Source: Escherichia virus TH47. From it: 64,000 bases of DNA. This document shows positions 5,624 through 61,013 of this stretch, piece by piece. Position 1 is the first letter of the stretch. Each line of letters starts with the position of its first letter. The stretch lies in sequence record MT446416.1. The stretch is one strand, 5' to 3'. The position numbers were made by a program, and so were the translations under genes. A model generated the notes under the pieces. The model was given only the letters and a program-made list of their open reading frames with translations, was not told where the DNA came from and made no database searches.

Positions 5624-6808
5624 CTACTTAATACTGTTCACATCAAGTTCTTGTACATTATATGATTCAATTATTTTTATTAATTTTTCATATTCCGATT
5701 CATTGATTGTTTCAGTATACCCGTCCAAATAATTTATTTTATCAATAACTTTTCTTTTTATGCCACTCATATGTTTAATAAAATATTCAAGTTCTTTGAT
5801 TAAAATACCATCAGCACTGTAATATGTTTTATATTTTTCAGTTCTAAATAAGTTTTTATTATATTGTTCAAATCTGTATATATAGTTGTTTGTTATACCA
5901 AATTTATAATATAACCTACCATTACCTAGTACTCGATGTATATAAAAATACCCAGGTTTACTTGGGTCATATCCACCTCGACTACAACTTGGACAACCTC
6001 TTTTCTTTTGAACAATATTTTGATATCGAGTTGTCCATTCAGGATGTTCACATTCTGAACATTTTAATGTAATTAATGTATGTACATTTTTATATATAAA
6101 TGGTTTATAAGTATATCCGTTAGATGTGCAAATTTCATTAAGTCTTTTAATTGATTCATCTTGTGAAAGACAAAGTTTTCTAGCTGTGGATTGATTTCCA
6201 CATTTTGCACATCCATTACCTTGATATACAAATTTATCATAACTTAAACTAAATTCATCATGGTCGGGATTGCAACATTTTAATGTAATTTTAGTTCTAT
6301 TATTTTTATATTCAAAAGGTTTATAAGTATATCCAGTAGTATTACATATGTTATTTACATTTAATTCTGCTTGTTGTTGGGTTAATTTTAACTTTCCACC
6401 ACATTCAATACATCCATTTTTCTTATTAACTAAAGAATTATAATTAGTTTCATGTGGTTTATGGGAGGCAACTCCACAATGAATTATTATTTTTGTTCCT
6501 ATAGCACCTTTAAAATCAAAGGGTTCATAAGTATATCCTTTTAATTCACATATTTCATGAACTTTAGTTCTTGCTGTTTTTTCTTTTAAAGAATTTCTTC
6601 CTTTACATTCTGGACACCCAGTTCTTTTATAAATGAATTTACTAAATTTACATTTCCATTCTTCATGTTTAAAGTTATCACATTTAAGTTCTAATATTGT
6701 TTTAGTGTTAATATAAGTGAAAGGTTTATATGTATAATTTTGTTCTAAACATCTGTTCGCTACTATTTTTTCAGCTTCTTCTTGTGTTAATCGTATCCCA
6801 CTAGCCAT
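5624..6808 (-). CDS. repeat-containing protein with putative C-terminal GIY-YIG nuclease domain (394 aa)
   Basis: Four tandem modules of about 65 aa each with GYTY[KE]PF...LKC...GC.[EK]C; C-terminal GYFYIHRVLGNGRLYYKFGIT resembles the GIY-x10-YIG motif. Confidence 0.45.
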   Translation of the reverse strand: MASGIRLTQEEAEKIVANRCLEQNYTYKPFTYINTKTILELKCDNFKHEEWKCKFSKFIYKRTGCPECKGRNSLKEKTARTKVHEICELKGYTYEPFDFKGAIGTKIIIHCGVASHKPHETNYNSLVNKKNGCIECGGKLKLTQQQAELNVNNICNTTGYTYKPFEYKNNRTKITLKCCNPDHDEFSLSYDKFVYQGNGCAKCGNQSTARKLCLSQDESIKRLNEICTSNGYTYKPFIYKNVHTLITLKCSECEHPEWTTRYQNIVQKKRGCPSCSRGGYDPSKPGYFYIHRVLGNGRLYYKFGITNNYIYRFEQYNKNLFRTEKYKTYYSADGILIKELEYFIKHMSGIKRKVIDKINYLDGYTETINESEYEKLIKIIESYNVQELDVNSIK

Positions 6809-6853
6809 GAAATATAATCCTTGAATCTTTGTTATTTCATATATTTACTATAT

Positions 6854-6886
6854 AAAAAAAAGGCTGACCGAAGTCAACCCCTTTTA
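6854..6886 (-). terminator. rho-independent terminator, conserved hairpin
   Basis: aaaaaaaaggctgaccgaagtcaacccctttt past the stop of 6888..7094. Confidence 0.55.
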
Positions 6887-6887
6887 A

Positions 6888-7094
6888 TTATTTTTTAAAC
6901 TTATGTTTTTCGCCGTCAATAGAGTTCACGATGACATCATGAATCTTGCGAAGGTTATGAGTTTTCTTTAGTGCTTCATGTAGTGCACGGAATGCTGCGT
7001 GTACTGTTGCCTTGAAGTGCTCTTTAGGAGTCACTTTAAGTTTCTCAATGATATCACGTACATAAATTGGATGATCTTCAAATACACGATTCAA
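6888..7094 (-). CDS. hypothetical protein (68 aa)
   Basis: Small ORF in gene series. Confidence 0.4.
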   Translation of the reverse strand: MNRVFEDHPIYVRDIIEKLKVTPKEHFKATVHAAFRALHEALKKTHNLRKIHDVIVNSIDGEKHKFKK

Positions 7095-7109
7095 TTCATG
7101 GCCTAGTGA

Positions 7110-7271
7110 TTATAAACTGAAAGCTTTTTCGCGTGAAGGACGATCATGTGCAAGACTTTGGTCAGGCTTTAGTAGACCTAGTGAATCAAGATACTTATGC
7201 TTATGTGCATTATCAATTCCAGAAATATCCACATCATGCGATGGATCTTTCTTATTCCATTTATCAACCAT
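7110..7271 (-). CDS. small hypothetical protein (53 aa), not in the supplied track
   Basis: Hand translation MVDKWNKKDPSHDVDISGIDNAHKHKYLDSLGLLKPDQSLAHDRPSRRKSFSL; aaggag SD 6 nt upstream; fills an otherwise empty gap. Confidence 0.4.
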   Translation of the reverse strand: MVDKWNKKDPSHDVDISGIDNAHKHKYLDSLGLLKPDQSLAHDRPSREKAFSL

Positions 7272-7382
7272 TTCACACTCCTTAAAGAGATAAATTACTT
7301 TAATATTTATACTTCATGTGCTGTTTATTTCCACAGACACTTAAGATTATATCACATATGAAATGGTTGTTCCAAAGTCAAA

Positions 7383-7859
7383 TCAGTACTGTTTAAGTTC
7401 TGAACTGAAGATAAAGGAATCCATATCTTCTAGTGTTAACTTCAAGTCCGGTGTGTACTTTAATATCACACATTCAGGTTTCTTAATGGCAGCTTGATAG
7501 GCAGCAATTGCCAACTGTTGAAGCTGCTCTGGTGTGTAGTTCATGCGTTCTGCATTGAATACGATGTTGTTAATATCACCACCTGGCAGCTTCTCAAACT
7601 CACGCATAACAGCAGCCATCACATCATCAGATGTATTCTTATAAGCCCAATGAGGTAGTTGCATAACATCATAAATCTCGCCATTGTCGTTCATAAGAGA
7701 GATCCATTTTTTACCGTCCGATGAACTAAACAGACGACCTTTAATAGCAATGTTCTCTACCAAATTAACAAAGGCAAATATGTCTTGCTCATTTAGTTCA
7801 ATGCTATTAACGTTAATCCAACCCATACTACATCTCCAGTTATAAATCACGAACGACAT
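7383..7859 (-). CDS. hypothetical protein (158 aa)
   Basis: ORF in gene series. Confidence 0.5.
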   Translation of the reverse strand: MSFVIYNWRCSMGWINVNSIELNEQDIFAFVNLVENIAIKGRLFSSSDGKKWISLMNDNGEIYDVMQLPHWAYKNTSDDVMAAVMREFEKLPGGDINNIVFNAERMNYTPEQLQQLAIAAYQAAIKKPECVILKYTPDLKLTLEDMDSFIFSSELKQY

Positions 7860-31960: not shown

Positions 31961-32076
31961 ATATTATGGAGTATTTATATGTAAGAAAAATATCATTTTT
32001 GAGGTCAATATCAGAATTGCACTGATTATTCAGACTTACAAGGTCCGTGTTATACTCTTTTAACTAATCGACCTGA

Positions 32077-32169
<93 letters not shown>

Positions 32170-32170
32170 T

Positions 32171-32209
<39 letters not shown>

Positions 32210-32214
32210 AGCAC

Positions 32215-32583
<369 letters not shown>

Positions 32584-32627
32584 AATTGCTTTATAAGCTA
32601 CTGAATCGGGAATCACAACCTCCCCAT

Positions 32628-33145
<518 letters not shown>

Positions 33146-33154
33146 ATTTGTTTC

Positions 33155-33340
33155 CTATGAAATGAATGTAGCGTTAATTCCCATTATAAATGCAAATATA
33201 CCAAACAATATCAGACCGATTGGTACAAAGATCATAGATCTATTTCCATGTTTCGATAAAAATCGTTCAAGTATAATTAAACGTATTGATATAGGAACCA
33301 TTATAATAATATACAATATTGAAAGAATTAAAAGTTGCAT
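33155..33340 (-). CDS. small membrane protein (61 aa)
   Basis: Two hydrophobic segments. Confidence 0.45.
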   Translation of the reverse strand: MQLLILSILYIIIMVPISIRLIILERFLSKHGNRSMIFVPIGLILFGIFAFIMGINATFIS

Positions 33341-33366
33341 TTTAATTTCCTATTATCATTTCGTTT

Positions 33367-33439
33367 TGCGACTCTGGAGGAACTCGAATCCCCAACCAAT
33401 TAATTAACAGTTAATCGCACCACCAATTGTGCTACAGAG
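33367..33439 (-). tRNA. tRNA-Asn (anticodon GTT)
   Basis: Manual cloverleaf: acceptor GACTCTG/CAGAGTC, D-stem GCAC/GTGC, anticodon stem ATTAA/TTAAT with loop CTGTTAA, T-arm GGGGA-TTCGAGT-TCCTC, discriminator G. Confidence 0.7.
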
Positions 33440-33449
33440 TCATAATTAT

Positions 33450-34154
33450 TTACAAGCCATGTCTTTTCAAAAATCTAGCAAACACATTTTTGGAAGCACC
33501 ATAGCTTTCATATATACTAACTTTTTTCTCACCATTAGTCAAACGTTTTTTTATATCTTCTATGTTATCTTCTAAACGTTTTACGTTTGCAAATTTCTTA
33601 GATGGTATGTTATTTTTGGTTCTATAATTCAGTACTGAACCTGAACTGATATTCATTATTTTAGCAATTTCAGTATCTAACAAACCTTGGTTAATATATT
33701 CTTTTACCTTTTCATAATCAACTGATGTTTCACCACCCTTTGTATTTGACGGAGGCTTGACCATTTTTTGTGAACACTCAACACTACAATATTTTGTATA
33801 TGATTTCACTTTAGTATGTCTACGGGAAAATTCCGTATTACAACAAGCACATACAAATGAATCATATCGTGCTTGTACTCCATTCTTATGTGTTTTATAA
33901 CGATGTTCATCAACATGAAGTATTTGTAAATTAGACAAATCATCATTTGTGAAATCATTATCAATGTGGTCTGCTTCTTCAGACTCAGTTAAATATCTAC
34001 CTTCTTGTACTGCTAATAGATATCTGGCATATTGAGTACTGCTTCTATCAGTTGGAGAATTATAAAGTATTACAGTTCTTCTACCTTCAGGGTTTATCTG
34101 TATATACCCATTCTTCCAATCATTACTATATGGATATTCTAATTTTATTTTCAT
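33450..34154 (-). CDS. HNH homing endonuclease with C-terminal HTH-like domain (234 aa)
   Basis: HNH core EEADHIDNDFTNDDLSNLQILHVDEHRYKTH; Cys cluster CACCNTEF...CSVEC. Confidence 0.7.
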   Translation of the reverse strand: MKIKLEYPYSNDWKNGYIQINPEGRRTVILYNSPTDRSSTQYARYLLAVQEGRYLTESEEADHIDNDFTNDDLSNLQILHVDEHRYKTHKNGVQARYDSFVCACCNTEFSRRHTKVKSYTKYCSVECSQKMVKPPSNTKGGETSVDYEKVKEYINQGLLDTEIAKIMNISSGSVLNYRTKNNIPSKKFANVKRLEDNIEDIKKRLTNGEKKVSIYESYGASKNVFARFLKRHGL

Positions 34155-34507
34155 TATTTTATTTCAAAGTTTGTGAGCCATCTGTGAGTCGAACACAGTA
34201 CCTAACGATTCGTATAATCTATAGTTTTCACTATAGTACGGACTATATCATCATCCCATAGGGATGCCGGACGCTAATGATGTATTACACAGTAAGATCG
34301 TACTGTACCATCTAGTCTCTGCACCTTCCCAATACGCTTATTGGGCTTGGCTCAGGATTGTCATCACCATTACGTGTTAAGATTTCCCTGAATTCATCCA
34401 GTTTTTCAATCACCATTACTGATGAAAGTCACCATTGTCGATGAGTCGTTTGCTCTAACCACCGTGAGCTAATGGCCCGATTTGGGTGTTCCTAGTGTTT
34501 CATTATT

Positions 34508-34721
<214 letters not shown>

Positions 34722-34733
34722 AAATTAATTATA

Positions 34734-35126
<393 letters not shown>

Positions 35127-35219
35127 ATCACCAACTTTAATTAAAAAAATGGATGGTTACGCTTTTAAACGCCGCTGTTAATTCAGCTTTATAACCACCC
35201 GTTTTAACTTGCCTTTCGG

Positions 35220-35414
35220 CTACCTTGACGTGGGGGCGTACAGGCTACTAAAAGCAACTTCTGTAAACATATTTCCACACCTTACCCTTTTAAATAAAAG
35301 TCCATCCGGTTTTCCAGTTTGGTGAAGGACTGTCACCTCTAGTTTAAACCTGCTAGTCAAGTAATAATTGCCTATCGTCCAATTATCAAACCCGTCTAGG
35401 TTAACATTCACCAC
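35220..35414 (-). CDS. uncertain small ORF (64 aa) within a GC-richer ORF-poor stretch
   Basis: ggaag SD-like sequence upstream; could instead be part of a non-coding RNA. Confidence 0.3.
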   Translation of the reverse strand: MVNVNLDGFDNWTIGNYYLTSRFKLEVTVLHQTGKPDGLLFKRVRCGNMFTEVAFSSLYAPTSR

Positions 35415-35489
35415 TTCCTAGAGTGCCAGAGATCTTGTTCTGGATTTCATCGACGTAACTTACACCATATACGTCTGATTGTGGAATTC

Positions 35490-35514
35490 ATTATATCAGT
35501 ACTGAACTATTTAG

Positions 35515-35518
<4 letters not shown>
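35490..35518 (-). promoter_or_regulatory. sigma70-type promoter (TTGACT-N17-TATAAT) with TCAGTACTG in spacer
   Basis: Minus-strand reading ttgactaaatagttcagtactgatataat; near-identical to the promoter at 35903..35930. Confidence 0.5.
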
Positions 35519-35893
<375 letters not shown>

Positions 35894-35898
35894 TATAC

Positions 35899-36101
<203 letters not shown>

Positions 36102-36105
<4 letters not shown>

Positions 36106-36266
36106 ATTCGTACCAGTAGTTCAATTAAGTACATTTCATATGCTGGATCGTTGATAAGTTTATCATACAGATGTGACTCTGAAATGAATTCCCAATGATA
36201 TTTTCGCCATTTACCAAAACCTGCATATCTAAAATTAATGTCATTCATCCATTCTTCATGTGTCAT
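36102..36266 (-). CDS. small protein, MTHEEW tandem paralog 2 (54 aa), not in track
   Basis: Begins MTHEEWMNDINFRY...; 165-nt unit identical in length to its neighbours; ATGA overlaps. Confidence 0.4.
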
Positions 36267-36427
36267 AATCGTACCATTATTTCAATAAAGAACCACGGAT
36301 ATACTTCATGGTTTATAAGTTTATCGTATTCTGCTGGGTCTGATATAATTTCCCAATGATATTTTCGCCAACTACCTATACCCGAATATCTAACATTAAT
36401 GTCATCCATCCATTCTTCATGTGTCAT
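36263..36427 (-). CDS. small protein, MTHEEW tandem paralog 1 (54 aa), not in track
   Basis: Hand translation MTHEEWMDDINVRYSGIGSWRKYHWEIISDPAEYDKLINHEVYPWFFIEIMVRL. Confidence 0.4.
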   Translation of the reverse strand: MTHEEWMDDINVRYSGIGSWRKYHWEIISDPAEYDKLINHEVYPWFFIEIMVRL

Positions 36428-36465
36428 GGTTTTTAACCTTTAATTAAAATTGTCAAAAATGTATT

Positions 36466-37004
<539 letters not shown>

Positions 37005-37024
37005 ATCCTTAATATTATATTTTA

Positions 37025-37096
37025 TAAAGGGCCGGAGAATCGAACTCCGATTGGATTCTTAGAAGGAATCTGTTTTATCCATTAAACTAGCCCCTC
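37025..37096 (-). tRNA. tRNA-Arg (anticodon TCT)
   Basis: Manual fold: D-stem GTTT/AAAC, anticodon stem GATTC/GAATC with loop CTTCTAA, T-arm CGGAG-TTCGATT-CTCCG; acceptor GAGGGGC/GCCCTTT needs two G-U pairs including 1:72. Confidence 0.5.
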
Positions 37097-37156
37097 AGTA
37101 CTAATAATTATATCACATCTTTGTGGTCTGTCCCAGAAATTGTGATATAAAAGTTG

Positions 37157-37375
37157 TTATTCTTGTGGTTTAGTTACACCAACACCAATAATGCTTTTAA
37201 TATCAATATGGATATTAGCAAGTTCATTACTGTCAAACGGGTTAGTTTCAGTTACAACAACAGTGGCATCATTAACTAAAACTACTGAACCTTTTACGCG
37301 GTATCCCTGAAGGAGTACTTGAACATTGTCACCAGCGTTTAATGAGTTAATAACTTCTAATAGGGTAGATTCCAT
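37157..37375 (-). CDS. hypothetical protein (72 aa)
   Basis: ORF in gene series. Confidence 0.45.
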   Translation of the reverse strand: MESTLLEVINSLNAGDNVQVLLQGYRVKGSVVLVNDATVVVTETNPFDSNELANIHIDIKSIIGVGVTKPQE

Positions 37376-37391
37376 TTTATATTCCTTACGG

Positions 37392-37583
37392 TTAACTATT
37401 TTTACGTTTTTCTGATTCTGGTACAGTTTTCATTTCACCAATACATAGTTCCATGATGAGTACACCTTTATCATTATAACGTACTACATCTTCAATGTCA
37501 AAATGTCTCGCACTATGAACAACTTCAATACATGCATCATCGGGATATGATTCCAATAATGCTACAAGTTCTGCTTTTGTCAT
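37392..37583 (-). CDS. hypothetical protein (63 aa)
   Basis: Small ORF. Confidence 0.45.
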   Translation of the reverse strand: MTKAELVALLESYPDDACIEVVHSARHFDIEDVVRYNDKGVLIMELCIGEMKTVPESEKRKNS

Positions 37584-37712
37584 TTGCCATCTCTCTGTTA
37601 TTTATCTTTAGTAATTATAGCATAAAAACACATCATGTCAAATGTTTTATCTTTATTTTAAGTGATACACAGTACTGAAAATATAATAAAGAAAAATTTC
37701 CAGTACTGAGTT

Positions 37713-38687
37713 TTATTTAACGTGTTTCCATGATACACCTCTAATAGCTCTACTTATTTGCATTCTATGAACGCCAAACTTTTTTGCTAATGCGTCATAA
37801 CCAAATTCTTTATGTTTTGGTACAAATACTTTTCTACAGTATCTAACTATATCTTCAGTTAATTTGGAATTTGGTTGTTCATCACCTTTAAGATGATAAT
37901 CAGGGTTATTTATTTCTTTATATTCTGTACTTTCTTTTGCAGTCGCCCACATAAGATTGTCTAAATCATTATGTTCTTTATTACCATCTTTATGTATTAC
38001 GTATGGTTTGTTTTCGGGATTTGGTATAAAAGCCATTGCCATTACACGACTTATTTTAAATCCTATATGTTTGAATTCATCACCAACTTTTATTTTTGTT
38101 GCATGATATGGATTTCCATTACTTAGAGTCTGCTTTAATATTTTTCCAGTGCGTTTGCTGAATAAATTTCCATTATCACTAATAGAAAAATCATCCTCAA
38201 ATCCAATTACATCTTTAAATATTTCAGTTTCATTTTCTGGTGGTTCAAATGGTATTCGGTTTTTATAGTAATATGTATTTTTACAAGAAGTTCCGCAAAA
38301 TCCTTTTGACCTACTATCAGAAATTATTATTCTATTAGTACAGTTGATACATTTTGTTTCATATGGTACAAAGGGTTTATAATTTTCGTATTTTATATTA
38401 CTTCTTTCTAACATATGAATTCTAGCATGTTCAGATGCTGACAATATTTCAAGATTTTCTGGGGAATTATTTAATATATTTTCATCTATATGATGTACAT
38501 GTTCATCGGATGATAACCATCTACCTGCTGCAACTGCTGCAACATGTCTGTGATAATATACTCTCCCAGTTTTATGACACATGGGGTGTTCTTTATCCAT
38601 AAAATAAAGATAACCCTTATTAGTGCCGTGTAATTTTAATTGGTTTATTATACATACCAAAGTTCTCCGTAAGTTGTTGTTTCGCAT
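37713..38687 (-). CDS. two-module HNH homing endonuclease (324 aa)
   Basis: N-terminal HNH VHHIDENILNNSPENLEILSASEHARIH; second module FKDVIGFEDDFSISDNGNLFS plus VIHKDGNKEHNDLDNLMWAT. Confidence 0.7.
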   Translation of the reverse strand: MRNNNLRRTLVCIINQLKLHGTNKGYLYFMDKEHPMCHKTGRVYYHRHVAAVAAGRWLSSDEHVHHIDENILNNSPENLEILSASEHARIHMLERSNIKYENYKPFVPYETKCINCTNRIIISDSRSKGFCGTSCKNTYYYKNRIPFEPPENETEIFKDVIGFEDDFSISDNGNLFSKRTGKILKQTLSNGNPYHATKIKVGDEFKHIGFKISRVMAMAFIPNPENKPYVIHKDGNKEHNDLDNLMWATAKESTEYKEINNPDYHLKGDEQPNSKLTEDIVRYCRKVFVPKHKEFGYDALAKKFGVHRMQISRAIRGVSWKHVK

Positions 38688-46955: not shown

Positions 46956-47486
46956 TTAATCGAGTATAGTAACTTCAATCAAACGAATTTCGATGAATTC
47001 GTTTTCAGTTTCCCATGATGAACCTAATTTCTTATTAAGTTCAGTTTTAACATCACTTTTAAATTTTCCCATAGTATTAGGAATAATTTGTTTGGTTAGT
47101 TTGTCATAACCACAATAAAACATAGGTTTCTCCCTTCGAGATATTAGAACAACAAAATCCTTTGGATATGCAGGTATATTATGCATCACTTCATGAATGC
47201 ACTCAGTACTTGAATCTTGTACTTTGTACATTACATTAAGTTTACCTTTGAAAGTGCTAATCATATCAACAATAATACCTTTACCAGATTTAAGTAAAGT
47301 TCCATTCTTTGTATGAGAACAATAGAATACCTCATCACCAATATTAGGATAGTACAAATTAAATTCTAATTCTTCCTTTGATGACTGACGTTGAAATTTC
47401 ATTACACGTTCAGTATAGGTGGGGTAGTTCTTCATGTTCAAAAGAATATCTCTCGTAGTAAGTGTGATATAACTGGCATAGTCCAT
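46956..47486 (-). CDS. hypothetical protein (176 aa as listed; start probably internal Met near 47435)
   Basis: Annotated start overlaps the methyltransferase gene by 49 nt. Confidence 0.5.
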   Translation of the reverse strand: MDYASYITLTTRDILLNMKNYPTYTERVMKFQRQSSKEELEFNLYYPNIGDEVFYCSHTKNGTLLKSGKGIIVDMISTFKGKLNVMYKVQDSSTECIHEVMHNIPAYPKDFVVLISRREKPMFYCGYDKLTKQIIPNTMGKFKSDVKTELNKKLGSSWETENEFIEIRLIEVTILD

Positions 47487-49327
47487 CCATTCCCAAGCAT
47501 TTTATATGCTTGTGTCTTACTAGACACTTTAAAGAAATCTTCAGGAACGCCCTGTAATTTACAACATTCTACTACACTTAAGTGTCTATAGTCAATATTT
47601 CTTTTACCATTCTCTAATAGATATTGACGATTAATCATTGGGTCACGAAACACCAATTGTCGTCTTGATTTATTAAAGTACTGGTTGCAATCACCACCCT
47701 TAAAATAGTTAGCATCTATACAGTACGAAGCGGTCCTGTCAGTGTACCAACCATCTTCAATGATATCTTGAAGTTTAGGGGCATTTGATAATGCAGGTGG
47801 TATAAAAAGCTTATCAGTACTGCACCAGTAGTATCTCTGCCTGAAGTGAGGCGTATAATGCTGGGAATTTATCAGTACTGGTGTCATCTCAAGAACACTA
47901 TTAATATATTGCTTGAAATCTTCTTTCATTTTAACATTCTCGAACAGTACTTTCAAGTCTGGATTGAGACTTTTTATGTGCTCATAAATGTCAACCATTG
48001 TATGAAACAACATTCCACGCGGATCATTTATTCCACCCTGTTTACCTGCAACAGACCAAGATTGACAATTGTGCACAACTATGTTATTTGCGGTATATGT
48101 ATTGTCAACGGCAACTTCAAAATTATATACGGTTTTCCATTCACCTGTCGAAATACTTGTTTTTATACCTTTAACCCATGAATAATTTTCGTCATAAAAA
48201 GCTTCCTCTTTTTTGGGTTTGTCTTTTTTATATGATAAAACATAATACGGTTTTTGGTTTACAATTCGTCCCTCAATAACTTTAGTTTTTTCTGGTTCGG
48301 TAAGGCTTATGTTGGAATGTCTTCCGTAAACGTTCATTATTAATTGTTGGACACCTAATACACAGTCTATTGATGTTGTAGTGAATTTATAACAATTACT
48401 ATCAATATGACCATCTGCATCAAAATATCCATCAAGGAATGCTTTTTGGTTCTGTACACATTCATTGAATAAATCGGGATGAACTTTCTTATTAGATGCA
48501 CCTTTACCCATTTGTTCACAGAATTCAACGAGTTCTTTTGAACATATATAAAATTTATATGATGTTCTTTCTTTGACATAATTATATTTCATGTTCATAC
48601 CTTCAAAACACGAAATCAATTCATCAAATTCATCATGTGCACAACAGATGAAAACTCTATACTGGTAACTATTCTTTCTATTATTACGCTTTACTTTATA
48701 AGTCCATCCGTCACCCATAAAGCGTCCCATAAAATACCAGAATTTTTCATCTTTTGATGATTTACTAGATTCAATTGATTTAACATTACAAAGAAAATGT
48801 TCAGATGTTAATTCGTGTGCCTCAACCCATTCAGGTTCAGTGAAGGATCGTTCAGATTGTCTAATTCTGTTATTCCAGCTAGACGACATTTTTCTAGCAT
48901 AAAATGGATGATTATCAGTGCATTCAATTGGGATATGACCTTGACCAGTTATAATACGGGTTGGTGCTTTTTTAACACCTGTACTCAATACTGGATGATA
49001 TTGTCCAGTATGTGTTAGTACCATGTCACCAACTTGAATGTCTTTAATGTCTTTATGACCTTTATCGGTCATTATCATTGTTCCTTCCGTGAAGCACGGG
49101 AACCCTCCCATGAGAAGGTCAATTTTATCCCACTCAATATCCCATTCTCTCCATTTAGTTACATCACCCAATTGGGTGATATCAGGAAAGTTAGCTTGAG
49201 ATTCAGCTATTGCGTACTTGTCAATTTCGGATGAATAATATTTTTCAACAGGGATACCAGCATCTTTTAATGCCATGTATCCCACACTCATCCCATTAAA
49301 AAGAGATAGTACTCGGATAGGTTTCAT
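47438..49327 (-). CDS. C5-cytosine DNA methyltransferase precursor containing an intein (629 aa)
   Basis: MTase motifs LSLFNGMSVG (I), GGFP-[intein]-CQSWSVAGK (PCQ, IV), LFENV (VI), RQRYY, MLGNGW (X); the extein sequence is contiguous only after removing residues 78-420. Confidence 0.75.
   Translation of the reverse strand: MKPIRVLSLFNGMSVGYMALKDAGIPVEKYYSSEIDKYAIAESQANFPDITQLGDVTKWREWDIEWDKIDLLMGGFPCFTEGTMIMTDKGHKDIKDIQVGDMVLTHTGQYHPVLSTGVKKAPTRIITGQGHIPIECTDNHPFYARKMSSSWNNRIRQSERSFTEPEWVEAHELTSEHFLCNVKSIESSKSSKDEKFWYFMGRFMGDGWTYKVKRNNRKNSYQYRVFICCAHDEFDELISCFEGMNMKYNYVKERTSYKFYICSKELVEFCEQMGKGASNKKVHPDLFNECVQNQKAFLDGYFDADGHIDSNCYKFTTTSIDCVLGVQQLIMNVYGRHSNISLTEPEKTKVIEGRIVNQKPYYVLSYKKDKPKKEEAFYDENYSWVKGIKTSISTGEWKTVYNFEVAVDNTYTANNIVVHNCQSWSVAGKQGGINDPRGMLFHTMVDIYEHIKSLNPDLKVLFENVKMKEDFKQYINSVLEMTPVLINSQHYTPHFRQRYYWCSTDKLFIPPALSNAPKLQDIIEDGWYTDRTASYCIDANYFKGGDCNQYFNKSRRQLVFRDPMINRQYLLENGKRNIDYRHLSVVECCKLQGVPEDFFKVSSKTQAYKMLGNGWTMPVISHLLREIFF
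48068..49096 (-). mobile_element. LAGLIDADG homing-endonuclease intein (about 343 aa) inserted at the catalytic Cys of the methyltransferase
   Basis: Insert begins CFTEGTMIM, ends NIVVHN followed by Cys; LAGLIDADG-like blocks FMGRFMGDGW and FLDGYFDADGHI. Confidence 0.7.
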
Positions 49328-55071: not shown

Positions 55072-55330
55072 ACAATCTCCTAGTGAAAAAAGCCAGATTC
55101 TTTCTTATATACTCGGCGACACAATCAGTAGTCTGTGTATTTGTGAATGCAACAACTTCATTCGATACACCATTCCCATTACACAATGGACAAATCCCCA
55201 TATACTTAGGTGTTGGAACTGTATCTAGTTTATATTTCCCTGAAGATATCATGTATTGTTGTGGTAATACATCCAAAGAAATAATATAATCATCATCGAA
55301 TTGCTTACAACATACCCAACATTTACTCAT
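55052..55330 (-). CDS. zinc-ribbon protein (92 aa)
   Basis: CWVCC...CPLC cysteine pairs. Confidence 0.45.
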   Translation of the reverse strand: MSKCWVCCKQFDDDYIISLDVLPQQYMISSGKYKLDTVPTPKYMGICPLCNGNGVSNEVVAFTNTQTTDCVAEYIRKNLAFFTRRLYERENL

Positions 55331-55814
55331 TGTGGTTCTCCTTCAAAACAATTCTTATATCTTCGAATGTTTGAACAAACCAGTCATGCTCATCAGATAC
55401 ATCAACCACCTTCCCACCATAAACATAGTAATGATAGAAGGGTAACTTACTTTTCCTCAATCGTTCAGCAAGTTCTGGGTTTTGAAATATCTTAGCACAT
55501 ATTGCATCCTGGATACAAGAAATGCATTCGGGTGTCATTTCAATACGGTCGTGCATATACTTGTTCGCCGCTGCTTTTGCAGCAGCACCCGACACTTTTC
55601 TAAGATCATCATGTTTCTGGCCTGTTAAAAACCAAAAATAAAAAGTTTCTACCGATGGGAACCAACCGTATGGTTCTAAGGTAAAACTATGTGACGAAAA
55701 GTTAGATAGATCCCTACCTAACTTAGTTTTAGCTTTACTATAGATATTAATGTGTCTGTATCCGTCATCAGTAGGGTCAATATAGTTAAATGACTCTTCA
55801 GGAAATTCAAACAT
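55323..55814 (-). CDS. NADAR (YbiA/DUF1768)-like protein, tentative (163 aa)
   Basis: LSNFSSHSFTLEPYGWFPSVETFYFWFLTGQK and AKIFQNPELAERLRKS resemble the NADAR core as recalled from memory; no alignment run. Confidence 0.35.
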   Translation of the reverse strand: MFEFPEESFNYIDPTDDGYRHINIYSKAKTKLGRDLSNFSSHSFTLEPYGWFPSVETFYFWFLTGQKHDDLRKVSGAAAKAAANKYMHDRIEMTPECISCIQDAICAKIFQNPELAERLRKSKLPFYHYYVYGGKVVDVSDEHDWFVQTFEDIRIVLKENHNE

Positions 55815-55816
55815 AA

Positions 55817-56170
55817 TTACTCTTCTTCACCAGATGGTGTACCACGCAGTTTATCAAAATCAACCCAAATACCATGCTGGTTTTTGAAGCGACATTTCTC
55901 ATAGTACCAGCTATAGTCGGTTTCAACACCCTGAGAAATTGAACGAACACTACAGTCATACATATTGTATAAATGTGTACGTACAATGAATGTTCCTATA
56001 AGAAGAACAAACACAACAATCCCAGTACAGATCTTTGGATGATCCATAATTAGGTCCAACACAGAACTGGTTTCAGTACTATCAATTTTACTACGACCGA
56101 TAGCAACAACTTTCAGTACTGCTAATGATACCAGTAATGAAATAACAAGAACACTCAAATAAATTAGCAT
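55817..56170 (-). CDS. membrane protein (117 aa)
   Basis: Two hydrophobic helices. Confidence 0.5.
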   Translation of the reverse strand: MLIYLSVLVISLLVSLAVLKVVAIGRSKIDSTETSSVLDLIMDHPKICTGIVVFVLLIGTFIVRTHLYNMYDCSVRSISQGVETDYSWYYEKCRFKNQHGIWVDFDKLRGTPSGEEE

Positions 56171-57375: not shown

Positions 57376-57930
57376 TTATAGTTTAATTACTTCTTGGATA
57401 CCAGTATCCATTGCTTTCTTAGTGCGTGTATCAGAAACTACTGTACATAAATGTTCAATATTTTCACTTGGGAATGTGTTAGTATCAAGAATTTTGGAGT
57501 TCCAGAAACCTTTACGGAACTTAGCATAATCAGTACACTGGTCAATTTTCATTTTCTGAAGATTGTTGAACTGTGTACGTCCTGACTCGATAGTTACCAT
57601 AAGTTCTTGATAAATCTTAGGATCGAGATTAGGAACCTGTTGTTGAATCTGTGACATCACAAACTTCTGGTCAACACCTTCACGACCTTTAAAGTATGTT
57701 TCGATGGTTTCTTTCAATGCATCCTTATACTTATCAGAAACTTGTACTTTTTCTTGAATGACAAGAGTGTATTTACTTAGTTGGCTTTCTGATGCATCAT
57801 AGTACTTTTTAATATTACCTTCAAATTCAACAGCACGGTCATGTGCATCTACATACATACTAACTGAACCAATTGCCATAAGACCGAATACAACAACAAC
57901 ACCAATCAATGCAATAATTTTACCATTCAT
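57376..57930 (-). CDS. LemA-family-like membrane-anchored protein, tentative (184 aa)
   Basis: N-terminal TM helix; C-terminal QELMVTIESGRTQFNNLQKMKIDQCTDYAKFRKGFWN resembles the LemA C-terminal consensus as recalled. Confidence 0.4.
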   Translation of the reverse strand: MNGKIIALIGVVVVFGLMAIGSVSMYVDAHDRAVEFEGNIKKYYDASESQLSKYTLVIQEKVQVSDKYKDALKETIETYFKGREGVDQKFVMSQIQQQVPNLDPKIYQELMVTIESGRTQFNNLQKMKIDQCTDYAKFRKGFWNSKILDTNTFPSENIEHLCTVVSDTRTKKAMDTGIQEVIKL

Positions 57931-59024: not shown

Positions 59025-59714
59025 TTAGTCCAGTTTAAGTTTATTGAGACAATAGGAGATTTGGATAGCTTCACGTGCTGCATCATACAGAGGGTGATGT
59101 AATTCCAAACCATTAATACCACATTTTTCTACATACTTCACGAATTTAGCTAACTGCACTGACACAATCTCATCCATTTCGGTGCGAGCTTCTTCATTCA
59201 ATAAACGCTTCAGGGTTCGTGCGTTTTCAGGAGCATCATATTTCCACAAATCACCAACATTCAATAGTTTTAAGTGATTAGCTTGTAAAATACTACAGTC
59301 GAAGTTGCAGCCATTTCCCCAAATTGAATGTTCAACCTCTTTACCATAACAATCAAAACGGATATCTTTCCAGAAATCGACAATAGCATTAGAAGTAAAG
59401 ATTTGTTTGGATTTACCATTAGGACCGTACAATTCTGGTGCAACAAGTGCCATAGTACTGGCAACTTCAGCATATGCATTAGGATATTCCTTCTGACATG
59501 TATTCATCCAGAAATCCATTGCACCTGCATCTGATTTCAGCCCAGCGTTGACTTGTGCTTGGTATGGTAACTTAACATATACAAATTGTCTGATATCATG
59601 TTCAGGTTTACTTGGAACAACTACTGCTGCATAATTTGGAATAATAATATCATAACCAGAGTTTTCAGGAGTACCGAGAGCTTCGATATCAACACTAACA
59701 TGACGGCGTTTCAT
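59025..59714 (-). CDS. DEDDh-type (DnaQ-like) 3'-5' exonuclease (229 aa)
   Basis: Exo I VSVDIEALGT, Exo II GNGCNFDCSIL, Exo III HHPLYDAAREA. Confidence 0.6.
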   Translation of the reverse strand: MKRRHVSVDIEALGTPENSGYDIIIPNYAAVVVPSKPEHDIRQFVYVKLPYQAQVNAGLKSDAGAMDFWMNTCQKEYPNAYAEVASTMALVAPELYGPNGKSKQIFTSNAIVDFWKDIRFDCYGKEVEHSIWGNGCNFDCSILQANHLKLLNVGDLWKYDAPENARTLKRLLNEEARTEMDEIVSVQLAKFVKYVEKCGINGLELHHPLYDAAREAIQISYCLNKLKLD

Positions 59715-59795: not shown

Positions 59796-61013
59796 TTACT
59801 TGTTAGCTTTTTCAGCAATTTCACGAAGAGTATCTTCGAGTTCATGAGAGAGTTTTGCGATTTCAATCTTAGCACGCTCACGCTCTTCTTTACCTTTCTT
59901 CTCTTCAATCAGTACTGCTTCGATACTATCGATCATTGTTTTATGTACATTACGCAATGTTTTAATATCCACGATACCACGATTATTTGCTTTAGCAGCA
60001 TCCAACATGTTAGTTGCTACCATTTTAGAGTTTACTTCGAGTAAACGGTTAGTTTCATTGTCAATCAGATTACCCAACTCATTGTCTTTACGTTGACGTT
60101 CGGAAATCAACTGTTCAGCCAATTGTGATTTCCATGCTGGAATAACAACTGATTTCAAATCCTCAAACTTAGAAACAGTGTTGAGGTTTACTTTCTTCAT
60201 ACTCATCAGGCGAGGACCACTCAGTTCACACATCATGATAAGACGACGAATCTTATCTTCCTGCTTAGAAAGAGCTTCACAAATCATCTTTTGCTCCTGG
60301 ATTGCAAAAGAATCAACGTCAGGGTTCGCTTGCATTGCTACCAATTCAGCATCTTGTGCTTTGGTAACTTCTTCCAACTCAACTAACGTATCACGCAGTT
60401 CAAAGAGATAGTTTTTGTTTTCGTTGTAAGCAGTGTCTAGCCATGCACATTCCCCATGCTGGCGGTTAATACCAACCTGAAGAGTGTTCATGATTTCATC
60501 AATTTGTTCTTTACTGTTTTTGTACTGATCGCCAACTTTCTGTTTAGCATTAACAAAGAGTTTTTTGACCCAGCCTACGATTGATTTATCATCCTGTAGA
60601 CTATCAATATCAACTGCACGTGTCAATGTCAAGATAGTAGTAATAGACTTACCGAATTCGGTATTATCATCAGTGACGTTAACTTTTGACATGATTTCAT
60701 CAGCCAAACGTCCTACACCTGCCCCAGCAGTGGTTCCGATGGTATTAATATTCTGCACAGTTAAAGCCATACTGTTACCTTTGGTATCTTTCAGTACTGG
60801 AAGTGACTTGGACTGTTGTTCGAAGATATCAGTTGCGTCAATTGTGTGTGCTGCTGTTTTGGTAGTACGTTTGGCAGTTTTGGTTGCTTTGGCTTGTTTA
60901 ACTGTTGCTTTTTTCGGATTGATTTCTTTCTCGGACATTGTGTATTCCTCAGTTAATTTAAGATAGTGTTGCTCAGTGATAAACATTCTACAGGCAACAC
61001 TCAGTACTGTCAA
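59796..61013 (-). CDS. TelA-like (toxic anion resistance family) protein, tentative (405 aa; start may be MSEKEI at about 60938)
   Basis: About 380-aa helical protein with Lys-rich N-terminus; family assignment from overall resemblance only. Confidence 0.35.
   Translation of the reverse strand: MTVLSVACRMFITEQHYLKLTEEYTMSEKEINPKKATVKQAKATKTAKRTTKTAAHTIDATDIFEQQSKSLPVLKDTKGNSMALTVQNINTIGTTAGAGVGRLADEIMSKVNVTDDNTEFGKSITTILTLTRAVDIDSLQDDKSIVGWVKKLFVNAKQKVGDQYKNSKEQIDEIMNTLQVGINRQHGECAWLDTAYNENKNYLFELRDTLVELEEVTKAQDAELVAMQANPDVDSFAIQEQKMICEALSKQEDKIRRLIMMCELSGPRLMSMKKVNLNTVSKFEDLKSVVIPAWKSQLAEQLISERQRKDNELGNLIDNETNRLLEVNSKMVATNMLDAAKANNRGIVDIKTLRNVHKTMIDSIEAVLIEEKKGKEERERAKIEIAKLSHELEDTLREIAEKANK

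Follow-up and report, generated by a model that had tools for sequence, protein, structure and literature searches.

The 64,000-nucleotide stretch of DNA analysed here, hereafter the window, belongs to Escherichia virus TH47 (sequence record MT446416.1), and it includes a minus-strand open reading frame (ORF) at positions 55323 to 55814 that runs from ATG to stop, encodes 163 amino acids, and almost certainly specifies a member of the NADAR superfamily, i.e., a protein with the YbiA fold. To judge from sequence comparisons, this protein represents a large, divergent, phage-borne clade that is sister to the "phage NADAR" family of T4 gp30.3, the latter also named AdfN, for anti-DarT factor NADAR (PF08010). 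It is filed here as a His-type member of the NADAR superfamily, and neither as a strict member of the gp30.3 family nor as a DarG1 antitoxin.

Homology and fold

The assignment is carried by profile comparisons and by a structural model. A family profile was built from 25 aligned homologs and searched against the sequences in the PDB, and its two best matches are both NADARs, namely the Phytophthora NADAR 8BAU (E 1.4e-4) and E. coli YbiA 2B3W (E 4.5e-4), with alignments that pair the INxYS strand, the SNF motif, the Glu, and the A-K-x-x-G-R segment. When 1.84 billion cluster representatives were searched with a profile, the relatives found amounted to 2100 representatives (clusters at 50% identity), 677 of which matched at E ≤ 1e-30.

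The conservation counts and the hhalign comparisons in this work refer to a domain alignment of 150 clade members, and to a set of 108 members for the gp30.3 family. The two families are aligned by hhalign at 98.0% (E 2.1e-13; 132 columns, practically the full length), and the clade is aligned with YbiA at 94.5% (E 7.4e-8, 138 columns). In addition, the hidden Markov models (HMMs) of the two families recover each other's members: the gp30.3 HMM matches all 150 clade members (best 1.5e-12), the clade HMM matches 107 gp30.3 sequences (best 1.3e-12), and among all window ORFs the best match of the gp30.3 HMM is the ORF under study (E 0.0076). The original prediction, made by a model from the letters alone, had named a possible NADAR after two segments that resembled the conserved core of the family, and both the PDB matches and the hhalign results bear this family assignment out.

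Regarding the fold, the AlphaFold2 model computed from the 25-sequence alignment (predicted local distance difference test, pLDDT, 92.2; predicted template modelling score, pTM, 0.85) has a helical core with short beta-strands at either end, a layout that matches the NADAR/YbiA fold as published (PMC9503650, PMC11125620). Foldseek against the PDB returned its top three matches at probability 1.00, with template modelling (TM) scores up to 0.63, and the next one at 0.04, which is noise; the best structural match is YbiA. Among the viral models of BFVD, clade members come first and are followed by dozens of annotated NADARs from giant viruses and phages, with TM scores of 0.6–0.69.

Annotation by standard searches

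The family membership is not visible to routine searches. As a single sequence, the protein has no match in Pfam-A, PF08719 included, even at E ≤ 10, so the PF08719 search that had been proposed together with the original prediction came back empty; NCBIfam, searched in the same manner, gave no match, and phmmer against the PDB sequences retrieved a chance carboxylesterase match only. The miss by PF08719 reflects the coverage of that model and is no evidence against homology; one homolog, P0012, reaches 14.5 bits against a cut-off of 35.1. The Phage_30_3 model (PF08010) does not match the protein either, and it gives sub-threshold matches in 10 of the 150 clade members (best 5e-7, 36-bit cut-off). 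BLASTP of the protein against T4 gp30.3 produced no alignment, which means that profiles are required to see the relationship.

Existing annotation is equally sparse. The protein matches two PHROGs, phrog_652 (8e-46) and phrog_11222 (3e-31), both listed as "unknown function", and its orthologs in GenBank are nearly all "hypothetical protein". The close ortholog of phage Turkey3, XMR01337.1, is labelled "NADAR domain-containing protein", which is the depositor's label and not a test.

The gene and its genomic setting

Both segments of the original prediction are present in the translation of this ORF, LSNFSSHSFTLEPYGWFPSVETFYFWFLTGQK as residues 36–67 and AKIFQNPELAERLRKS as residues 107–122. 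The ORF is a real gene rather than a chance ORF, with orthologs in 33 related jumbo phages. Its product is expressed and under strong purifying selection: in the comparison with the ph0011 ortholog (83.5% nucleotide identity) the ratio of nonsynonymous to synonymous substitution rates (dN/dS) is 0.028, with a dS of 1.64 and a dN of 0.046.

The TAA stop codon of the upstream gene, at 55817–55819, lies 2 nucleotides before the ATG of the NADAR gene, and the 3′ end of the latter is in turn overlapped by the ATG of the downstream gene; because of this abutment and overlap, the gene is seen as embedded in a translationally coupled array. A purine-rich tract resembling a Shine-Dalgarno (SD) sequence, GAAGAAGAG, stands ahead of the ATG, and its position, together with that of the upstream stop, likewise suggests translational coupling.

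The DNA of the window is 97–98% identical to that of Escherichia phages Ecwhy_1, Turkey3, fEgEco12, and others, and 82–84% identical to that of 121Q-like phages (Asteriusvirus), these related phages being jumbo phages of about 350–385 kb; the window is part of a 121Q/PBECO4-like (Asteriusvirus) jumbo coliphage. The minus strand carries 118 of the 121 window ORFs of at least 60 amino acids, and the NADAR gene lies within a long co-directional array of small genes. These minus-strand ORFs are mostly small, with stops and starts that overlap or abut, and have no family assignment.

Active-site residues

Mutagenesis of characterized members has shown three positions to matter for NADAR function. 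The first is the catalytic Glu that binds the distal ribose (PnNADAR E43, E. coli C7 DarG1 E88, and T4 AdfN E36; PMC11543638, PMC11825919), and the second is a Lys seven residues after it, at Glu+7, that binds the pyrophosphate/adenine (PnNADAR K50, DarG1 K95, and AdfN K43; PMC11543638, PMC11825919). This Lys is essential in DarG1, and the K43A variant of AdfN gives partial rescue only (PMC11825919). Finally, a residue of the last strand defines the subfamily, being Glu in the YbiA type, Asp in the DarG1 type, and His in phage NADARs (PMC11125620, PMC11543638).

The counterparts of these residues in the TH47 protein are collected in Table 1. The last-strand residue, H128, is kept in 148 of the 150 clade members, just as T4 AdfN H123 is in all 108 members of its own family; it stands at the start of the strand 129–132 and, in the alignment, within one residue of the Glu of YbiA 'LVEH'. 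The likeness to YbiA claimed in the original prediction consequently holds for the superfamily and fails for the subtype, H128 being the mark of a His-type phage NADAR and not of the Glu-type to which YbiA belongs. The inspection of catalytic residues that it had recommended gave a divided answer as well, with E56 and H128 kept and the Lys at Glu+7 absent. In the clade, the Glu+7 column is occupied by Ser in 38, Gly in 35, Leu in 29, Lys in 14, and Ala in 12 of the 150 members, as compared with Lys in 104 of the 108 members of the gp30.3 family. A covariation scan of the clade for a substitute of the lost Lys found no clear compensating position; the only hint, a weak one, is that position 135, a Lys in the TH47 protein, is basic in 47% of the members that bear Lys63 versus 81% of the others, a comparison with n = 15 that is uncorrected for multiple testing.

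The N-terminal motif of the clade has D17 in 145, G18 in 150, H21 in 145, N23 in 150, Y25 in 143, and S26 in 144 of the 150 members, and the LSNF motif has N38 in 146 and F39 in 140. K80 is conserved in 149 of them; its counterpart in DarG1, K115, is not needed for catalysis and is required for the rescue from DarT1 (PMC11543638). Other near-invariant elements are R34, an aromatic helix of the sequence E-G-Y-W-Y-W-L, R72, and W145.

Table 1. Positions in the window of the NADAR-superfamily gene of Escherichia virus TH47 and of its sequence features (the numbering of the 8BAU chain equals that of the paper plus 2)
Feature	Position	Strand	Basis
Coding sequence, 163 amino acids plus stop; stand-alone NADAR-superfamily domain, His-type, gp30.3/AdfN-like clade	55323..55814	(-)	
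Purine-rich SD-like tract GAAGAAGAG, 5 nucleotides upstream of the ATG, within the 3′ end of the upstream gene	55820..55828	(-)	Read from the sequence; putative function
DGYRHINIYSK, residues 17-27; clade-specific motif D-G-x-x-H-I-N-I-Y-S-K, first beta-strand	55734..55766	(-)	Aligned with YbiA 'INFYST'
LSNF motif, L36-S37-N38-F39; common to YbiA, PnNADAR, and T4 AdfN	55698..55709	(-)	Alignments (FSNF/LSNF)
E56 (GAA), equivalent of the catalytic Glu that binds the distal ribose	55647..55649	(-)	Alignments; conserved in 150/150
L63 (TTA), at the position of the Glu+7 Lys (PnNADAR K50, DarG1 K95, AdfN K43)	55626..55628	(-)	Alignments
K80 (AAA), G-x-x-A-K motif; aligns with PnNADAR K75 / DarG1 K115	55575..55577	(-)	HMM alignment to 8BAU
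H128 (CAT), H-Y-Y motif, opens the C-terminal beta-hairpin; charged last-strand residue that defines the subfamily	55431..55433	(-)	Aligned with T4 AdfN H123

Distribution, domain fusions, and gene neighbourhoods

Members of the clade are found in jumbo coliphages, in Ackermannviridae (Kuttervirus/Vi1-like), and in phages of Vibrio, Erwinia, Ralstonia, and Klebsiella. Among the 150 representatives, the Pfam domains fused to the NADAR are DUF4326 (27 cases), YAcAr SLOG (24), Macro (6), DUF488-N3a (6), canonical NADAR (5), and Metallophos (1), and these fusions fit the network of NAD+/ADP-ribose domains that the Aravind laboratory has described in large phages and giant viruses (PMC9503650, PMC7824862). 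A metagenomic protein of 1415 amino acids, P0122, combines a Pfam NADAR at residues 10–143 (1.1e-20), a His-type NADAR of the present clade at residues 547–698, and DUF4326; the presence of two NADAR types in one polypeptide suggests that the substrates of the two clades are non-redundant.

The immediate neighbours of the TH47 gene encode small proteins without family matches. The homolog in the Rak2-like phage CBB is syntenic, that of Ackermannviridae lies between the rIIB and topoisomerase genes, and the distant members sit, in seven metagenomic neighbourhoods, within phage arrays of early or replication genes. Links to related biochemistry are sporadic in these seven, with one case each of an adjacent ADP-ribosyltransferase (ART) of the ADPrib_exo_Tox family, a nearby NMNAT-like gene, a nearby DUF4326, and a fused DUF488-N3a. 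The first of these is on an ENA metagenome contig of 116.9 kb (L008, positions 6001–7678), where the distant member P0020 is convergent with a 392-amino-acid ADPrib_exo_Tox/ART-family ADP-ribosyltransferase, a pair that echoes T4, in which gene 30.3 is a few genes away from alt. No ART was found among the annotated neighbours of the gene, and no second copy of the family among the window ORFs.

On a Logan contig (L014), the order of TelA, a gene of about 350 amino acids, a gene of 184 amino acids, a small gene, and the NADAR homolog P0011 is as in the window between 55323 and 60986. This homolog is only 50% identical to the TH47 protein, and the shared order suggests that synteny around the gene has persisted for a long time in Rak2/121Q-like jumbo phages.

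Proposed function and alternative readings

By analogy with the AdfN proteins of T4, Bas32, and Bas60, the TH47 protein would be an ADP-ribosyl N-glycohydrolase that behaves like an orphan antitoxin and is made during infection, from a gene array that is probably early or accessory. A DarT1-type ADP-ribosyltransferase of the host would modify guanine in the replicating phage DNA, and the enzyme would cut the bond between ADP-ribose and the N2 of guanine, whereby replication would be restored in E. coli carrying DarTG1. E56 and H128 would keep the distal ribose in place and activate it, and, with the phosphate-binding Lys missing, the ADP moiety would have to be bound otherwise, for which basic or aromatic residues that are conserved specifically in this clade are candidates (K27, R34, R72, K80, and the EGYWYW helix). 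Taken as a whole and with its substrate included, i.e., a NADAR that counters DarTG1 through guanine-ADP-ribose (G-ADPr) on DNA, this explanation by analogy, the likeliest of those considered, appears to us evenly balanced between true and false.

Several published findings speak in its favour. Every NADAR tested so far, from all four families, hydrolyses G-ADPr, both on DNA and on RNA (PMC11125620, PMC12945103), and this includes the hydrolysis of guanine-ADP-ribose on DNA by T4 gp30.3 (PMC11125620, PMC11825919, PMC12945103). The AdfN proteins of T4, Bas32, and Bas60, three unrelated phage NADARs, neutralise DarTG1 (PMC11825919), which backs for other phages the reversal of DarT-type guanine ADP-ribosylation that the original prediction had put forward, and DarTG1 is present in E. 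coli (PMC11543638). The retained Glu/His pair of the clade and its fusions to domains that process ADP-ribose speak for the proposal as well.

A number of observations weigh against this proposal. The Pfam models for NADAR (PF08719) and Phage_30_3 (PF08010) both stay below threshold on the protein. The loss of the Glu+7 Lys may, to judge from the alignment, alter the binding of ADP-ribose; the contacts made with ADP-ribose by R79, W89, D130, and W133 in PnNADAR have no clear conserved counterpart in the clade; and the TH47 protein has N84 where the clade usually has Arg or Lys. The 64-kb window holds no DarT-related gene, and none of its 74 ORFs of at least 100 amino acids is an ART, Macro, Nudix, or NAD-salvage gene. 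No fixed gene partner emerged from the seven distant neighbourhoods, CBB, and PhaxI, which makes the protein an orphan, like AdfN. T4 AdfN and YbiA both fail to rescue the toxicity of DarT1 in uninfected cells (PMC11125620, PMC11825919), so that activity on G-ADPr in vitro is no guarantee of protection in vivo, and the surveys of the Aravind laboratory hold that most phage NADARs target soluble ADP-ribose derivatives (PMC9503650). The missing Lys and the non-conserved contacts in particular have lowered our confidence in a DarT1-type substrate to roughly half, and the view that G-ADPr DNA of the DarT1 type is the physiological substrate, drawn by analogy, is at best as probable as its opposite.

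The serious rival, and the main one, is that the protein is an active NADAR glycohydrolase whose substrate is a soluble ADP-ribose derivative and not DNA, for instance an NAD+-derived immune signal or toxin (TIR/Thoeris-like, SIR2, or ART) or a by-product of RNA repair, degraded early in infection; we consider this unlikely, while giving it appreciable weight. The repeated fusions of clade members to SLOG (YAcAr/YpsA), Macro, DUF4326/DUF488 phosphatase-like, and Metallophos domains form an architecture that has been read as a multi-step pathway for ADP-ribose derivatives of low molecular weight (PMC9503650, PMC7824862), and the lost Lys, the new N-terminal motif, and the EGYWYW helix fit a remodelled ligand pocket; neither the window nor the seven neighbourhoods have a DNA-related partner gene. 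However, no NADAR is so far known to act on signals of this kind, those tested cleave G-ADPr on nucleic acids, T4 AdfN included (PMC11125620, PMC12945103), and the almost invariant K80 aligns with the Lys of DarG1 that is implicated in the DNA/DarT1-related rescue. Put more broadly, it is possible, although again the less expected outcome, that this separate large clade with its remodelled pocket has a substrate other than the guanine-ADP-ribose DNA made by DarT1, be it a soluble immune signal derived from NAD+ or some other ADP-ribosyl adduct. It is more doubtful still that the protein removes the modification from another macromolecule, such as G-ADPr RNA, mRNA modified by a CmdT-type enzyme, another base, or the adducts of the phage's own Alt/Mod-like ARTs, and tunes or limits these modifications instead of opposing DarT1. 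NADARs do act on G-ADPr of RNA, and some on cytosine-ADP-ribose (C-ADPr; PMC12945103, PMC11833690), they are co-expressed with phage ARTs (PMC9503650), and a distant clade member adjoins an ART of the ADPrib_exo_Tox family, and T4 30.3 is a few genes away from alt; yet the His-type NADAR of T4 removes G-ADPr and not C-ADPr (PMC12945103), the window has no ART, and adjacency to one was seen in a single neighbourhood out of seven.

A loss of catalysis, with the protein turned into a binder of ADP-ribose or nucleic acid (a sponge or decoy) or into something with an unrelated structural role, is very improbable. The absence of a Lys that DarG1 cannot do without and the lack of conservation at several ADP-ribose contacts would agree with it, but E56 and H128, both under strong purifying selection, have the pattern expected of an active site, and the K43A variant of T4 AdfN retains partial function (PMC11825919). 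Hardly credible, finally, is a housekeeping role as a YbiA-like N-glycosidase on intermediates of the riboflavin pathway. YbiA is the best structural match, and enzymes of the YbiA family with such an activity have been reported (cited in PMC11125620 and PMC9503650); against this stand the His-type signature in place of the Glu-type of YbiA, an hhalign result closer to gp30.3 than to YbiA, and the phage-borne nature of the clade, with no riboflavin genes nearby in the window.

Other features of the window

The gene immediately upstream of the NADAR gene (55817–56170, minus strand, 117 amino acids) was considered as a functional partner and rejected. Its homolog in ph0011 is annotated as a 'WWE domain-containing protein', and Pfam finds no WWE in the 117-amino-acid product at E ≤ 1, only a sub-threshold match to DUF6097; the annotation, which would imply ADP-ribose binding, looks unsupported. 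Inspection by eye suggests two hydrophobic, possibly transmembrane, segments and a C-terminal tail of about 50 amino acids, and the neighbourhood is not kept, as the NADAR homologs of CBB and PhaxI do not have this gene beside them.

Elsewhere, the window encodes a C5 cytosine DNA methyltransferase of 629 amino acids (47438–49327, minus strand; PF00145, 1.8e-32, in three stretches) whose sequence is broken up by an intein equipped with a homing endonuclease, for which the domains Hint_2 (residues 77–158), LAGLIDADG_3 (residues 294–357), and Intein_splicing are found. The ortholog in Turkey3, which is 98% identical, has only 286 amino acids, meaning that TH47 carries the intein and a close relative lacks it. 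A tRNA island in 32001–38687 contains Thr-TGT, Asn-GTT, Ser-GCT, and Arg-TCT, interspersed with a homing endonuclease of the HNH_3 and NUMOD4 type (37713–38687). The equivalent region of Turkey3 has more tRNAs (three Ser, Met, Asn, and two Thr), and tRNA content thus varies between near-identical phages. Further recognisable genes are TelA (59796–60986), a LemA-annotated gene (57376–57930), an Rv2179c-like 3′-5′ exonuclease (59025–59714), a protein with CapR homology and a treble clef (5624–6808), and one ORF with sigma-70 regions 2 and 3.

Significance

Counter-defence by orphan NADARs of phages is already known as a kind, and one ortholog of the present protein was already labelled NADAR. 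Those tested as anti-DarTG1 orphan antitoxins come from T4-like phages, T5-like phages, and Vequintavirinae only (PMC11825919); one paper states that phage NADARs outside the T4-like phages are barely described, and, of the medium and jumbo phages, sensitive surveys credit about 48% with a NADAR (PMC9503650). Our search of the literature returned no paper that links NADAR to Asteriusvirus or Ackermannviridae.

What is added here is a much larger, His-type sister clade that is missed by the standard domain models. Its recognition allows PHROGs 652 and 11222 to be given a likely function, and it predicts resistance to DarTG1 for several groups of phages that are candidates for therapy. Moreover, the loss of the Lys across the clade is a natural experiment on ADP-ribose binding and substrate choice in NADARs, and a distinct substrate, if it exists, would mean that jumbo phages and Ackermannviridae share a new enzymatic activity in counter-defence.

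Comparison with known NADARs

The closest known system is T4 AdfN. Both proteins are stand-alone, of about 150–160 amino acids, with nothing beyond the core NADAR domain; they share the LSNF motif, the invariant Glu (E36 in AdfN, E56 here), and the last-strand His (H123 and H128, respectively), and the phage genes for both belong to arrays of small genes of an early or accessory kind. They differ in that no pairwise similarity is detectable, in that the clade of the TH47 protein has lost the Lys at Glu+7, and in that this clade has its own N-terminal motif and the EGYWYW helix. The distribution differs as well, with the present clade in jumbo phages, Ackermannviridae, and phages of Vibrio, Erwinia, and Ralstonia, and the AdfN family in T4-like phages.

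DarG1 (BC4488-type; E. coli C7; G. lovleyi, 8BAT) is more distant, as it has an Asp, D171, at the last-strand position where the TH47 protein has a His. It keeps the essential K95 and is extended at its N terminus by a segment that forms an electropositive channel, whereas the phage protein is limited to the core, with its 163 amino acids; furthermore, DarG1 is encoded beside its toxin DarT1, and the phage protein is an orphan without a toxin partner. YbiA (2B3W) and the Phytophthora NADAR (8BAU), both PF08719, combine a last-strand Glu with a Lys at Glu+7, where the TH47 protein has His and Leu, and the D..WG motif that follows the last strand in the Glu-type proteins YbiA and PnNADAR is not found in it.

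The remaining comparison is with AdfN-Bas32, from a T5-like phage, and AdfN-Bas60, from Vequintavirinae. These came out of conserved-domain searches (DELTA-BLAST) and cluster with NADARs of archaea or bacteria that are not of the His type (PMC11825919); by these descriptions they are set apart from the present clade, which escapes the Pfam models and has gp30.3 as its sister. They neutralise DarT1 and rescue several phages on hosts with DarTG1 (PMC11825919), and, as orphan NADARs of phages, they have the same role that is proposed here for the TH47 protein.

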